Assembly (NCBI GenBank): GCA_039799965.1
Contig: JBDLRS010000015.1
Location: forward strand, 7,497-71,496
Length of the DNA stretch: 64,000 bases
Reading direction: 5' to 3'
DNA from: Pseudomonadota bacterium
GTDB taxonomy: Bacteria; Bdellovibrionota_C; UBA2361; OMII01
Position numbers and translations under genes: made by a program. Shown one piece after another: positions 5,304 to 47,082 of the stretch. How positions within the stretch are numbered: position 1 is the stretch's first letter; each line of letters starts with the position of its first letter. Below the pieces are notes generated by a model, which was not told the origin of the DNA, did no database searches, and saw only the letters and a program-made list of their open reading frames with translations.

Positions 5304-5409
5304 GCTGCCGCTCCACATCCGCGCGCACCATCGCTTCGGTTTTACTGAAGTGAGGTGCGCGCGGCTATGTGACCTATAGTTTTTTATTCAAACCAAGATA
5401 GGAGAGAGT

Positions 5410-6063
5410 ATGTCTGCGATTACCAGTGACATGATTAAGAAGCTTCGTGAGATGACCGGGGCTGGAATGATGGACTGCAAGGGCGCCTTAACCGAGGCTG
5501 AGGGATCTATCGAGAAGGCTATTGAGATACTTCGTAAGAAGGGCCTCAAGGATATCGAGAAGCGTTCCGGAAAGACCGCTGCCGAGGGCACTCTCGGGGT
5601 GTACATCCACCCAGGAGATCAAGTTGTGTCCGTGGTAGAGCTCAACTGCGAGACCGACTTCGTTGGTCGTGGAGACGAGTTTCGTCAGTTGGCTAAGGAC
5701 CTCGCTATGCACGTCGCGGCTATGAAGCCTCGTTACCTCACCGTTGAGGAAGTTCCAGAGCAGATCCTTGAGAAGGAAAAAGAGATACTCATTGACCAGC
5801 TTAACGATGAACAAAAGAAGAAGGCTAACATCATCCTTCCGGGCAAGATTGAGAAGTTCCTTGAGGCCGTTGTCCTCATGAATCAGATCTACATCAAAGA
5901 TGAGACCGAGTCGAAGACGATTAAGGCCCTTATCGATGACATGAGCATGCGATGTGGTGAGAAGGTAACAGTTCGACGCTTTAGCCGACTTGAGGTGGGT
6001 GAGGGCGTGGAGAAGGTTGCTGGAAACCTCGCTGAAGACGTTGCAGCGATGGTGGGTAAGTAA
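5410..6063 (+). CDS. tsf: Elongation factor Ts (short form, 217 aa).
   Basis: The N-terminal ITSDMIKKLREMTGAGMMDCKGALTEAEG UBA-like motif is typical of EF-Ts. The gene sits downstream of rpsB. Confidence 0.9.
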   Translation: MSAITSDMIKKLREMTGAGMMDCKGALTEAEGSIEKAIEILRKKGLKDIEKRSGKTAAEGTLGVYIHPGDQVVSVVELNCETDFVGRGDEFRQLAKDLAMHVAAMKPRYLTVEEVPEQILEKEKEILIDQLNDEQKKKANIILPGKIEKFLEAVVLMNQIYIKDETESKTIKALIDDMSMRCGEKVTVRRFSRLEVGEGVEKVAGNLAEDVAAMVGK

Positions 6064-6216: not shown

Positions 6217-6933
6217 ATGACCAACGTGAAGTATAAGCGAATCCTTCTGAAGCTGAGTGGCGAGATCCTTGGTGGTGAGAAGGGGACTGGAATCGAGTCC
6301 TCCATCATCAACGCGCTTGTTAGCCAGATTCGTGAGGTGACACAGCTTGGCGTTGAGGTCGGAGTCGTTATCGGGGGAGGTAATATCTTCCGCGGTGTGC
6401 AGGCGGGTTCCCAGGGACTCGATAGAGTAACCGGCGACTACATGGGAATGTTGGCGACCGCCATCAACGCACTCGCCCTTCAAGATCGCCTTGAGGCTGA
6501 AGGGGTATACACCCGAGTGCTCTCCGCTATTGAGATGAAGGAGATCTCAGAGCCTTACATCAAGCGCCGCGCGACGAGACACCTTGAGAAAGGGCGTGTT
6601 GTTATCTTCGCGTGTGGAACAGGGAATCCATTCTTCACCACTGATACCGCCGCCAGCCTCCGCGCTATGGAGGTTGGGGCCGAGATCCTTCTTAAGGGAA
6701 CGAAGGTCGATGCGGTATACGATTCAGACCCCAAGAAAAACCCTAACGCAAAGCCGTTCGGGAAGATCACCTTCATGGATGTCCTACAGAAGGGCTTGAA
6801 GGTGATGGATGCAGCGGCGATCTCGCTGTGTATGGAAAACAATCTTCCGATCGTGGTGTTTAACGTGGGAGTCGAGGGGAACCTTAAACGGATCGTTTGT
6901 GGCGATGTCGTGGGAACCCTCGTTGAAGGATAA
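6217..6933 (+). CDS. pyrH: UMP kinase.
   Basis: [12 protein letters not shown]...GGGNIFRG are amino-acid kinase motifs. The start is chosen at ATG 6217 with an upstream GGAGA. The track ORF begins at 6115. Confidence 0.9.
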
Positions 6934-7550: not shown

Positions 7551-8336
7551 ATGACCATGGAGAGCGAATCAGTAGTAGCACGGGTGAAGGAGGGGGACTC
7601 AGCGCGAACCGCGCTAAAGGTAATCCCTGCGCACGTCGCTATTATCATGGATGGCAACGGTCGGTGGGCGAAGAAGCGGTTCCTTCCCCGTGTGGAGGGG
7701 CATCGTAACGGCGCCAAGAGCGTTCGCTCAACGGTTGAAGAGGCGCGGCGCCTCGGCGTTCGGTATTTGACCCTCTTTGCCTTTTCCACTGAGAACTGGC
7801 AGCGGCCAACCGATGAGGTCGGCGGTTTGATGCAGCTGTTCTTGCGTCATCTTGAGTCGGAGCTTGAGGTGCTTTTAAAAAACGGTGTGCGACTCCGCGC
7901 GATGGGTGACATCGCTCGATTGCCACAGTCCGTTCAGGATCTCTTGCATCGAAACGAGGAGAAGACCAAGCACCTCGACGGGATGGACCTCATTCTGGCA
8001 GTTTCTTACGGCGGGCGGGATGAGGTAGTACAGGCGATGAAGAAGATTGGCCGTGCTATCAAAGCCGGCGAGGTTGATCCAGATTCGGTTACCGAGGAGA
8101 TGGTGTCGCGTTCCCTTTACCTTCCTGATGTTCCGGATCCTGAACTTCTCATTCGCACGAGTGATGAGAACCGCATCTCGAACTTCTTGTTATGGCAGTT
8201 GGCCTACGCGGAGATAGTGGTAACTCCCGTGCTCTGGCCTGATTTTACGACTGATGAGTTTCACAGGTGTCTCCATGTCTTTGCAGGACGCAATCGTAGG
8301 TTCGGACGAACTCAAGAGCAGATCGACGGGAAGTAA
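7551..8336 (+). CDS. uppS: Undecaprenyl diphosphate synthase (cis-prenyltransferase).
   Basis: HVAIIMDGNGRWA...ENW..P are UPP synthase signature regions. Located next to frr and cdsA. Confidence 0.9.
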   Translation: MTMESESVVARVKEGDSARTALKVIPAHVAIIMDGNGRWAKKRFLPRVEGHRNGAKSVRSTVEEARRLGVRYLTLFAFSTENWQRPTDEVGGLMQLFLRHLESELEVLLKNGVRLRAMGDIARLPQSVQDLLHRNEEKTKHLDGMDLILAVSYGGRDEVVQAMKKIGRAIKAGEVDPDSVTEEMVSRSLYLPDVPDPELLIRTSDENRISNFLLWQLAYAEIVVTPVLWPDFTTDEFHRCLHVFAGRNRRFGRTQEQIDGK

Positions 8337-15902: not shown

Positions 15903-16138
15903 GGCCTCGCTGTGTATGCCGTGCTCGTGAACATCACCCGCCCGAACTGCTCGCTCCTTCTATAGCCCGTTAGGATAACCCTACCTAAAAACCTACGGCA
16001 TCCGGCTAGCAAACCCCTGTTTTGCCTCGCAAGTCCCAGGTATTCCTGCCCAAACGCGAAAAATTACCCACCATGCCCCTAAACTCCTTCAGGGCTCGTC
16101 GAGCGTGGCCCGATACTAATAGCAGGGGTGTATGAGTG

Positions 16139-16327
16139 AATAATCCTAACCTCGGCAGTTGTGGGTCTGAAAACGGCGCATCTGACTACAATCACTTTGT
16201 CTTTTGAATGTTCGGTGCTCACCCTGACGGTTCCAGGGTTGCGCCTTTCGAAAAGTTCAAAATACTTGGGGCTTGTAGCCATCTGCACCATTTCCATCCT
16301 CCTTACCTGCCCAATGTAGGATAATCG
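16139..16327. repeat. MITE-like intergenic repeat, copy A, with terminal inverted repeats ATAATCCTAACCTCGGCAG / CTGCCCAATGTAGGATAAT.
   Basis: Shares about 90 bp of near-identical core with 25611..25700 and a diverged core with 35404..35614 and 35966..36170. The TIRs were read directly. Confidence 0.6.
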
Positions 16328-16403
16328 CTCAGGTCCTCCACGCAGTGGTGTGGTGTTTCTCGTGGTGTGGCGGTACCGACTAGCAACCAAAACGTAGAAC
16401 CTC

Positions 16404-17099
16404 ATGACCGAACTTCTCTCACTACCTTGGTACGTAACGGTGGCGCCCCTGTGCGCGCTCATCGGCGCGATAGCCGTGAGTAAGGCGCTAAACATCTCTC
16501 AGCTTGCTTCGTTTCTGGGCGCTGCGCTGCCCCTTGGATTACCTCACGCCGACCTCTCCGTTTCCTCTCAGTCGCTGCTATCTAAAGCTCCCGTTCAGGT
16601 CGTAGGGGGATGGGGAATGATGCTGGGGATCGCTGTAATCTGGGTCCTTCTGCGTGCCCTTGTGCGAGCGGTTAAGGGACCCGTGGGGCTCCTGAAAGCG
16701 ATCTTTTCACTTCTCCTCGGCGCCGCAGGAGTCGTGGTGGTGTTACTGCTTGCGGAACCGAGGATGCTTCACACGTATTTCCCTGATTGGAGGGAGTCCG
16801 TCGGTGGGCTACTCCTCGCGACAACAACGGCGAGTGTCGCGCTCACGATTATTCGACTCTTCAAATCGGCAGCTATCCTTGTCGTTGCCTCGGTGGCAAC
16901 GGTTATACTCGCGAGTCAGGTATTCTTCGAGAAGATGCCATACGATCTCAAAGAATCTGACATCCAGAAGATTGAGAGGGCACTCCCAGCCTCGATGCCG
17001 AAAGGGCTCGTTGCAAACGGGTTTGAGGGGCTGATCAAAGCCAGCGCCTCAACTCGCTCCGCCCTTGGGACGGCGGCTTCTGACGATATTGAGTCTTGA
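16404..17099 (+). CDS. Hypothetical polytopic membrane protein.
   Basis: 231 aa with several hydrophobic helices. No motifs recognised. Confidence 0.4.
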   Translation: MTELLSLPWYVTVAPLCALIGAIAVSKALNISQLASFLGAALPLGLPHADLSVSSQSLLSKAPVQVVGGWGMMLGIAVIWVLLRALVRAVKGPVGLLKAIFSLLLGAAGVVVVLLLAEPRMLHTYFPDWRESVGGLLLATTTASVALTIIRLFKSAAILVVASVATVILASQVFFEKMPYDLKESDIQKIERALPASMPKGLVANGFEGLIKASASTRSALGTAASDDIES

Positions 17100-25610: not shown

Positions 25611-25755
25611 TGATCCTAACTTCGGCAGGTGCGGGTCTGAAAATGGCGCATCTGACTAGAATCACTTTGTCTTTTGAATTTTCGGTGCTCACCCTGACGG
25701 GGCAATCTGGGCGTTCCTCATGCGCAACAGGAAATCATTTTTCACCACCCTGCTA
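25611..25755. repeat. MITE-like repeat, copy B. It appears chimeric. The left roughly 90 bp match family 1 (copy A). The right end, CACCACCCTGCTAG, matches the TIR of the 37676..37787 element in inverted orientation.
   Basis: Read directly: 25611..25700 is about 93% identical to 16145..16234, and 25711..25755 is the reverse complement of 37676..37716. Confidence 0.55.
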
Positions 25756-25923
25756 GTTATTTACAGCCTCGATGGCCTTTGATAACCTGCTGCGATAGCT
25801 AAAGATATTTCTACCGATTAACGCCTCCTGCCGGTGGCGTAGGGTAGAGTTTGGCAGATGATTCGGCGCTTCTTTTCTAGGGCGCGGCTCATCTGAACGT
25901 GTCCCAGAGGGAGTTTGTAAGAT

Positions 25924-35403: not shown

Positions 35404-35614
35404 TATTAACCTACATTCGGCAGTTGCAGGCCTGAAAACGGCGCATCTGGGAAAAATCGCGGCGGCCTTTGAATTTTCGGTAACCTCGGCGTGAGCTCGG
35501 TCAAACGCTCACCCTGACGGTGCCAGAGTTGCGCATCTCGAAAAGTTCAAAATCCTTGGTGCTTTTAGCAACCCGCATCATTATCGCTCTCCGTAACTGC
35601 CGAATTTAGGATAA
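35404..35614. repeat. MITE-like repeat, copy C, with 20-bp terminal inverted repeats TTATTAACCTACATTCGGCAGTT / AACTGCCGAATTTAGGATAAAA.
   Basis: TIRs read directly. The core shares GGCGCATCTG...TTTGAATTTTCGGT...CACCCTGACGG...AAAAGTTCAAAA with copies A, B and D. Confidence 0.6.
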
Positions 35615-35728
35615 AAAACTGTTGTCTGAAAGCGGTGAGCATATATGATACCACTTTCAAAGTTTCGTTCTACCTCTTGGAGGTAACGGACTAAGGTACT
35701 AATACGATTTTTAGGATAAGGATACAGT

Positions 35729-35890
35729 ATGGGAAGAGGAGATGGTCGTTCTCGTCGAGGAAAGATCTTCAAGGGTTCATACGGCAATACCCGCAAGCAC
35801 AAGGTGAAGTCAGCGGTCCCAACAGGTAAGACGGCTGCTAGAAAGGTGACCGGAGTCAAGAAGGCTCCAGCTACCAAGAAAGCGAAGTAG
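35729..35890 (+). CDS. Small basic ribosomal protein bTHX (Thx)-like, 53 aa.
   Basis: MGRGDGRSRRGKIFKGSYGNTRKHK resembles Thermus Thx ([24 protein letters not shown]). An AGGA RBS sits 7 nt upstream. It is not in the ORF track because it is under 60 aa. Confidence 0.55.
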   Translation: MGRGDGRSRRGKIFKGSYGNTRKHKVKSAVPTGKTAARKVTGVKKAPATKKAK

Positions 35891-35965: not shown

Positions 35966-36170
35966 ATTAAACCAACATTCAGCAGCCGCGGGCGCCAAAA
36001 CGACGCATCTGGCAAAAATCACGATGGCTTTTGAATTTTCGGTGGCTTCAGCGTGAGCTCAGTCGAACGCACCCTGACAGTGCCAGGGTAGCACCTTTTC
36101 AAAATTCAAAAGCCGAAGTTATTTTGACCAGATGCGCCATTCTTGGGCCCGCAACTGCTCTTTTTAGGTT
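35966..36170. repeat. MITE-like repeat, copy D. It is nearly palindromic, with long imperfect arms.
   Basis: The left arm TTCAGCAGCCGCGGGCGCCAAAACGACGCATCTGGCAAAAATC pairs with the right arm GATTTTGACCAGATGCGCCATTCTTGGGCCCGCAACTGCTC. The core is shared with copy C, including the CGGCGTGAGCTCGGTCAAACG insert. Confidence 0.6.
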
Positions 36171-37675: not shown

Positions 37676-37787
37676 CTAGCAGGGTGGTGAAAAATGATTC
37701 CCTGTTGCGCATTTCGATAGTTTGACTGCAACTTCGTTGGGGGCGCTACTGAACCCTCTTGTACCACCCTGCTAAACATTGTGGGGG
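37676..37787. repeat. Short palindromic repeat element with 12-bp TIRs TAGCAGGGTGGT / ACCACCCTGCTA. It is related to the right end of repeat copy B.
   Basis: TIRs read directly. The first 40 bp are the reverse complement of 25711..25755. Located immediately after the coaD stop. Confidence 0.45.
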
Positions 37788-46765: not shown

Positions 46766-46869
46766 AGTGTCCCCCTTACAAGTCCGCCGAAGCTAGACTT
46801 ATATCCGGAACATGGGCATGAGTGAATCAGGTAAAGTGGTAAGTATCTGAATAGTCGTTGCCCACCCTG

Positions 46870-47082
46870 CTAGTGTGAGCCTTCAACCACCGCCATCTGC
46901 TCAAGCTCTGAGATAAGGGTAGTTAGTTTCTCTCGAATGTCCTCAGCGAGAACGGACATAAGGGTTCCTGTTTGCGAGATCGAGTTGTCGGTGTGAACGG
47001 TCTCGCGAGCGATCCACTCAGCACACGTGCCGAGGTGATCAAGGCGGCTTGCGATTTCGAGAACTTGAGCAAGGGTATTCAT
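46870..47082 (-). CDS. Hypothetical 70-aa acidic protein.
   Basis: ORF lying between the lipoprotein and membrane genes on the same strand. No motifs. Confidence 0.3.
   Translation of the reverse strand: MNTLAQVLEIASRLDHLGTCAEWIARETVHTDNSISQTGTLMSVLAEDIREKLTTLISELEQMAVVEGSH

Follow-up and report, generated by a model that had tools for sequence, protein, structure and literature searches.

The 64,000-nt stretch of DNA analysed here (the window) contains four similar intergenic repeats, which raises the question of what kind of element they are and how they are moved. The first-pass annotation had placed them at 16139..16327, 25611..25755, 35404..35614, and 35966..36170 (copies A to D, respectively) and had taken them for either a non-autonomous transposable element or a family of structured sRNAs. 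Our analysis indicated that the repeats are very probably a non-coding MITE of ~176 nt, with a long form of ~200 nt, that cannot move by itself and depends on an IS1380-family DDE transposase acting in trans. All four homologous repeats were present by direct reading, by the repeat finder, and by nhmmer, and nhmmer searches seeded with either copy A or copy C returned exactly these four places in the window. The identity of ~93% over ~90 bp reported for A and B was reproduced by the repeat finder (93% over 88 nt). C and D were 65-68% identical to A, and long inverted matches were found among the four copies as well. Alignment with MAFFT showed that the element was quasi-palindromic, in that its left ~75 nt resembled the reverse complement of its right ~75 nt. 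The copies had been described as occurring in both orientations, whereas all four matched best on the + strand in nhmmer; the misreading probably arose because the element is quasi-palindromic.

The earlier description was corrected at four points, namely where the copies begin and end, how far the terminal inverted repeats (TIRs) extend, which way the copies point, and what the tail of copy B is. The inverted termini of ~20 bp held up, but the TTAT/ATAA that had been counted as part of them was instead part of a 5-bp target-site duplication (TSD). With these corrections, A is a short copy complete from end to end, B is truncated, and C and D both belong to a long subfamily. Copy A (16145..16320, + strand) was a full-length short-form MITE of 176 nt, CCTAACCTCGGCAG ... 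CTGCCCAATGTAGG, delimited by nhmmer and alignment. It was flanked by ATAAT on the left (16140..16144) and ATAAT on the right (16321..16325), assigned as the TSD from the sequence and the TSD statistics given below, and was the only window copy with a perfect duplication. Copy B (25615..~25705, + strand) consisted of the left ~91 nt only, from the left TIR through the central CACCCTGACGG, without the right half, and was fused to an inverted-repeat fragment of a second family (25720..25756, + strand). Copy C (35410..35610, + strand) was a full-length long-subfamily MITE of 201 nt with an internal insert of ~25 nt, and its flanking pentamers, ATTAA at 35405-35409 and ATAAA at 35611-35615, matched at 4/5 positions. 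Copy D (35972..36168, + strand) belonged to the long subfamily, measured 197 nt, and had a right arm of the left-arm type, with flanking pentamers TTAAA and TTCAT (3/5 match). The insert shared by C and D, given before as 21 bp, was confirmed near the centre of the alignment at ~25 nt. Because the pentamers of C and D matched only at 4/5 and 3/5 positions, the window copies may be old.

The copies were strictly intergenic, as had been stated. All four lay between real genes, and the spurious-looking ORFs that overlapped them, such as 16079-16495(-), had no family match. Their neighbours were ordinary chromosomal genes, encoding a sigma-54 activator, carB, rpoZ, a GBBH-like_N protein, ribosomal protein Thx, and a cytidylyltransferase-like (CTP_transf_like) protein. 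No tRNA or tmRNA was found in the 64-kb window, and an origin of the repeats from these genes was rejected. The Thx gene (53 aa, window 35729-35890, + strand; Pfam Thx 29.1 bits, just below the cutoff) had a MITE on either side. In the MAG CAZZLV01 the Thx gene (L072 ~6573-6647) was also flanked by MITEs in equal relative orientation but at other distances, and the flanking MITEs of the two genomes therefore look like independent insertions. In an NCBI assembly of the window's population the Thx gene was on a contig of 758 nt, presumably cut by the two MITEs. The fragment fused to copy B belonged to a second small inverted-repeat element of ~100 nt, unrelated to the MITE. Its full copy was at 37676-37775 of the window, its ends were CTAGCAGGGTGGTG ... 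ACCACCCTGCTA(A/G), and fragments of it were present at 25720-25756 and 46849-46873. The former was 97% complementary to 37676-37712 in the repeat finder and was matched by nhmmer as well. This second element had no match in the 103 related genome loci described next.

Copies in other genomes were scanned with a 20-base core pattern in one genome per species, which gave at least 103 loci. Among the matches listed, nearly all were in a single MAG labelled uncultured Bdellovibrionales (CAZZLV01), with a few in the MAGs JBIKWQ01, JBIKKR01, and JBKCMS01 (labelled Bdellovibrionota or Pseudomonadota) and one on a small contig binned elsewhere. A match in Pseudodesulfovibrio (L100) had no nhmmer match and was set aside as a chance occurrence of the pattern; viral contigs gave 0 matches to it. 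In the window plus the 103 loci listed (686 kb), nhmmer found at least 224 non-overlapping copies or fragments, 115 of them near full length and 54 touching a locus or contig end. CAZZLV01 alone accounted for at least 203 of these in 504 kb, roughly one per few kb, so that the expectation of a major genome-wide repeat was borne out for abundance in a related MAG. At the megablast level only the repeats matched between the window and the loci, and the window therefore comes from another genome with the repeat in common. Synteny with the window was nonetheless seen in several loci, at 70-75% nucleotide identity, which places the window's organism near these Bdellovibrionota MAGs.

By a simple ORF model, 106 of the 115 full copies were intergenic, and the tandem, divergent, and convergent contexts (49:22:20) came close to the 2:1:1 ratio that insertion at random between genes would give. 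Where the context was tandem, 20 copies were co-oriented and 29 anti-oriented with respect to the genes, without orientation bias, and the flanking sequences were unrelated between copies. Exact-protein look-ups placed the window within a 75-kb JGI metagenome contig (3300044701, Ga0451755_0000095), and contigs of the window's own population, assembled from short reads, ended inside copies B, C, and D. CAZZLV01 appears to be an unusually repeat-rich genome. At least three further short repeat families were seen in it, sometimes nested in or beside the MITE, with examples ...CGTATTTTTCACGAAGCTCGCTGCGCTCCGGAATTTGCAAGTGC..., ...AAAGCCTTGCCAGTTTTACTGGCACGGACTTTTGC..., and ...GTTTTCCAAAAGTTCGTAGCGATATAACGGCTCTTGGAAAAC..., the last also present in JBKCMS01 (L093). 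Their sites were L007 3424-3585, L065 6760-6870, L076 1370-1500, L036 ~50-110, L045 ~760-810, L082 ~50-110, L093 ~7885-7940, and L094 ~5385-5440.

The anatomy of the family was obtained from an alignment of 111 full copies with 20-nt flanks, whose consensus was CCTAAATTCGGCAGTTGCGGGCCCGAAAACGGCGCATCTGGCTAAAATCACTTTGTCTTTTGAATTTTCGGTGCTCACCCTGACGGTGCCAGGGTTnCGCCTCCGAAAAGTTCAAAATnCTTnGTGCTTTTAGCCAnCTGCACCATTTTCntCCTCCTTAACTGCCGAATTTAGG. The element started with CCTAAATTCGGCAGTT and finished with AACTGCCGAATTTAGG; conservation set in at CC, ended at GG, and was at background just outside. The length was 175-177 nt with a mode of 176 nt in the 84 full copies compared, which came from related MAGs as well as the window, and the long form measured 197-201 nt. 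The TIRs comprised 16-21 nt (CCTAAATTCGGCAGTT...), the element had no transposase coding capacity, and its size was well under the ~600 bp limit for MITEs. Column conservation was 96% in the TIRs, 95.6% in the centre, and 78-90% elsewhere, where the variation was mostly between subfamilies. The strongly conserved centre, TTTTGAATTTTCGGTGCTCACCCTGACGGTGCCAGGGTT, contained a small hairpin, ACCCTG-N7-CAGGGT. High conservation of the TIRs together with the centre fits cis-requirements for transposition. The variants included the short and long subfamilies (the long form was also present in CAZZLV01), a TIR variant (CCTAAAAACGGCAG), copies with the left-arm type at both ends like window copy D, nested copies, truncated copies, and derivatives of 42 nt that consisted of the two TIRs alone. 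Such two-TIR mini-derivatives, which are probably internal-deletion products of the MITE, occurred back to back at L045 713-754 (e.g. CCTAAATTCGGCAGTTGCGGGCCCGCAACTGCTGAATTTAGG, 42 nt) and L067 ~732-790.

The insertions of this family left a defined footprint. A 5-bp TSD was perfect (5/5) in 32 of the 84 copies, versus 5.3 expected when left and right flanks were re-paired at random with the target consensus preserved. The signal was confined to 5 nt, and registers of 3, 4, 6, 7, and 8 nt gave none. The target consensus was A/T-rich, W-T-N-A-H, with nearly invariant T and A at its second and fourth positions. We took the combination of a 5-bp duplication and ends starting with CC to point to IS1380, and this family was therefore taken up for comparison.

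The termini of the MITE resembled those of IS1380-family elements. On plasmid pC15-1a, ISEcp1 has the IRL CCTAGATTCTACGT and, read inward, the IRR CCTAAATTCCACGT, and the terminal nine bases of the MITE, CCTAAATTC, were identical to that IRR. The same IRL of ISEcp1 has been published, along with 5-bp direct repeats on insertion (PMC6061673). The ends of IS1247 (CCCACATTTCC and CCTGCATTCCC) and of an IS1380 member from Ligilactobacillus (CCTGAATTATTC) were likewise of the CCTnnATT type seen in the MITE. A metagenome collection was then scanned for autonomous ISs with a pattern made of the 21-nt TIR and MITE-excluding bases at positions 59-64, which on local data rejected 135 of 137 MITE arms. 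The scan returned seven loci, two of which (L111 and L114) carried an IS of 1,673 bp (L114 366-2038). The IS end beside the transposase stop codon in L114, CCTAAATTCGGCAGTTGCGGGCG, shared 23 identical nucleotides with the MITE, and the other end, CCTAAAAAACGCAGCTTGCC, resembled the TIR variant of the MITE. The 518-aa ORF of this IS (L114 438-1991, - strand) matched Pfam DDE_Tnp_1_4 (PF13701) with 84.7 bits against a cutoff of 34.7. Its best NCBIfam model was NF033539 transpos_IS1380 (E = 1.4e-40), at 139 bits and thus under the 180-bit cutoff, and ISEcp1 matched the same Pfam and NCBIfam models. The similarity between the L114-type IS and the MITE was confined to the first ~23 nt, and the MITE is therefore not a simple internal-deletion derivative of this IS.

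The L111/L114 copy had no 5-bp TSD. The two loci, from different metagenomes (L111 256-2297 and L114 1-2042), were 99.9% identical through the IS and 365 nt past its stop-side end, and diverged exactly at the other IS end, a pattern that the IS may have produced by mobilising DNA next to it, in the manner of ISEcp1, or that may reflect a chimeric assembly across the repeated IS. By protein search the subgroup of the L114 transposase was very large, with more than 7,600 relatives, mostly on contigs of ~1.7 kb. One relative, P0052, was 65% identical to the L114 transposase and occupied eight different sites in long contigs (L125-L132). Its IS was 1,696 bp long with the TIRs CCTAAATCCGGCAGTTGAGC and CTCAACTGCCGGATTTAGG, and 16 of the 17 nt in its TIR CCTAAATCCGGCAGTTG were identical to the MITE. 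Perfect 5-bp duplications flanked this IS at all eight sites (ATGAC, GTGAA, TTTAT, ATGAT, ATTAC, GTCAT, TTGAT, and GTCAA), and every one had the form N-T-N-A-N. The MITE and the IS1380-type ISs thus agreed in termini, duplication length, and target consensus. The matching ISs were on contigs of 58-59% GC and higher, versus 55% for the window.

Other elements with similar ends were seen in the course of these searches. A related IS with protein P0053 was present in L124 (gene 1201-2766; 4.87-Mb contig ctg17339, ENA ERZ25069711). Its left end, CCTAAATCCGGCAG, was at 1143, no matching right end was found within 1.2 kb downstream, and it may be a one-ended or truncated copy. Other metagenomes contained different non-autonomous elements with the TIR of the MITE (L112 298-786; L113 1559 onward; contig ends of L110 and L116). 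One of them, at L112 298-786, had 489 nt and was flanked by ATAAT/ATGAT, and another was represented by an element end, CCTAAATTCGGCAGTTGAGGGGCGCG..., found at contig ends in two different flanks.

A partner was also sought closer to the window. Neither tblastn with ISEcp1 nor hmmsearch with a three-member IS1380 profile, run against all ORFs of the 64-kb window and of 621 kb of related loci, gave an IS1380 transposase, and an all-vs-all search of the window and loci found no multi-copy ORFs. TIR pairs 0.26-4 kb apart in the loci were inspected as candidate ISs and rejected: the pair in L007 was a truncated MITE beside other repeats, and that in L065 was a MITE with a nested second repeat. A fragment in L084, in which a left arm ran into unrelated DNA, was considered as an IS end and discarded, the DNA adjoining it being an ordinary 444-aa gene.

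These observations upheld the earlier reading of the repeats as a non-autonomous transposable element, in that the family had TIRs, a 5-bp TSD above chance, hundreds of dispersed copies, and termini and a footprint matching IS1380, and its presence appeared to vary between syntenic genomes. In the mechanism we propose, a transposase of the IS1380 subgroup would bind the TIRs of the MITE and catalyse its transposition. Supplied in trans, this DDE enzyme would cut and paste the MITE, or copy it; each insertion duplicates 5 bp of an A/T-rich W-T-N-A-H target. Such a transposase would be present now, or would have been present recently, in these Bdellovibrionota genomes, and the partner IS would be expected to carry a DDE_Tnp_1_4 / IS1380 transposase gene between CCTAAATTCGGCAG-type ends. 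The centre of the MITE may have been conserved because only copies that retain it would continue to be mobilised.

Mobilisation by another family that duplicates 5 bp, such as that behind the Tn3-derived TIMEs, IS1634, ISH3, or the ISAba11-type elements, was the alternative that survived best, and we consider it very improbable. Families other than IS1380 also leave a 5-bp A/T-rich TSD, and searches of the window and of the 621 kb of loci gave no IS1380 partner. The TIMEs are close in several respects, as they are also non-autonomous and generate 5- or 6-bp duplications in AT-rich DNA (PMC4133298). However, they carry 38-bp Tn3-type IRs beginning with GGGG (PMC4133298), whereas the IRs of the MITE are of 16-21 nt and start with CC. 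The attribution to IS1380 was further favoured by the 23 identical terminal nucleotides shared with an IS whose DDE_Tnp_1_4 protein is of the IS1380 type, by the same N-T-N-A-N 5-bp TSD at 8/8 sites of the sister IS (P0052 type), and by the nine terminal nucleotides in common with the ISEcp1 IRR.

The sRNA reading, by which the repeats would act through a long hairpin, as a small-RNA family or as RNA elements regulating in cis, drew on the quasi-palindromic form of the MITE, on the small conserved hairpin at its centre, and above all on copy D. As the first-pass annotation had stated, copy D formed a long hairpin, and a near-perfect one, with an RNA MFE of -80.7 kcal/mol, far better than its shuffles (z = -6.3). 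The hairpin of copy D was strong because both of its arms are of the same type, and it is not a property of the whole MITE family. Copy A folded no better than its shuffles (z = -1.5), and RNAalifold on 82 copies gave -2.7 kcal/mol and 11 pairs, only one of which had a single compensatory change, so that neither a consensus fold nor covariation was evident. In the whole window there were 0 Rfam matches at gathering thresholds, and two sub-regions searched at E <= 10 gave only sub-threshold miRNA and snoRNA noise. A scan of window copies A, C, and D found no sigma-70 promoter or intrinsic-terminator consensus inside them. The absence of orientation bias with respect to flanking genes (20 co-oriented versus 29 anti-oriented) also spoke against an RNA role, and TSDs and IS-type TIRs are unexpected for an RNA gene family. 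There is therefore no evidence for an RNA gene or regulatory cargo in the MITE, and we regard a structured RNA family as very improbable, slightly more so than mobilisation by another 5-bp family. The least credible reading takes the repeats for REP/BIME-like palindromes that a RAYT (IS200/IS605-type) enzyme has spread, or for chance or segmental duplicates of regulatory DNA. It would account for intergenic, palindromic copies in high number, but IS200/IS605-type mobilisation leaves no target duplication whereas a significant 5-bp TSD was present here, the MITE has 176 nt and defined TIRs versus the 20-40 nt of REP palindromes, and the unrelated flanks of the copies exclude segmental duplication.

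With the repeats taken as a MITE moved by an IS1380-family transposase, we asked how recent its movement has been. The 93% identity of A and B had been held to imply recent mobility; this was a reasonable inference but not a proof for this genome, in whose population no empty/filled polymorphism was found. The full copies of CAZZLV01 were a median of 87% identical to one another with a range of 67-99.4%, so that the copies in this MAG range from old to very young. Copy A of the window was a median of 84% and at most 90% identical to the CAZZLV01 copies, and the left half of copy B was up to 96.7% identical to one of them (L025 2681-2770). Between genomes, MITE copies were thus 84-97% identical (A and B versus L025, L095, L068, and others), compared with 70-75% for orthologous genes. 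This gap suggests horizontal spread, or continued amplification from constrained master copies.

Three MITEs lay between genes of MAG L076 and were absent from the corresponding intergenic regions of the syntenic MAG L073, but the two MAGs were ~75% identical and their intergenic DNA was too diverged for a base-precise empty site. Within the window's own population no insertion polymorphism was found, and exact-protein look-ups of flanking genes (Thx, RpoZ, and a 119-aa ORF) for empty sites led only to that population again or to contigs that broke off at the repeats. A more ambitious view holds that the family is currently active and horizontally exchanged among freshwater Bdellovibrionota, and that its centre is an exapted unit, such as a host-factor binding site or a regulatory hairpin, beyond a cis-requirement alone. 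We consider this unlikely, though less so than the alternatives weighed above.

Among known systems, the closest to the MITE are ISEcp1 and other ISs of the IS1380 family (IS1247 and ISPme1), whose termini begin with CCT..ATTC as in the MITE. These ISs measure 1.65-1.7 kb and encode a DDE transposase of 420-521 aa, whereas the MITE is of 176-201 nt, encodes nothing, and beyond ~23 nt has no similarity to the ISs found. The classical bacterial MITEs include the Correia elements of Neisseria, pneumococcal RUP, the cyanobacterial MaeMITEs, and Nezha; Correia and RUP give TA duplications. Like them, the family described here has a length of ~150-250 nt, TIRs, a short TSD, and tens to hundreds of intergenic copies (for MaeMITE counts, see PMC2779907), and it shows subfamilies, nested insertions, truncated copies, and broken short-read assemblies. 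Unlike them, it has its own TIR sequence, a different inferred transposase family, and a host lineage of uncultured freshwater Bdellovibrionota. An outward promoter has been reported for ISEcp1 (PMC9330008), and no such outward promoter consensus was seen in window copies A, C, and D.

As far as full-text literature searches show, the family is undescribed, although the class of elements to which it belongs is known in depth. The searches found no paper containing the TIR string and no named IS1380-derived MITE, and we know of none. Our findings leave the knowledge of how MITEs work unchanged. They provide a clean, statistically supported case of a MITE tied to IS1380, the family of ISEcp1, and they define an N-T-N-A-N 5-bp target for this IS1380 subgroup. 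MITE copies are more alike across genomes than housekeeping genes, which hints at recent horizontal spread or continuing activity. Together with other repeats, the MITE riddles the genomes of uncultured freshwater Bdellovibrionota and fragments their short-read assemblies, and annotating it would help the binning, scaffolding, and intergenic annotation of these organisms.
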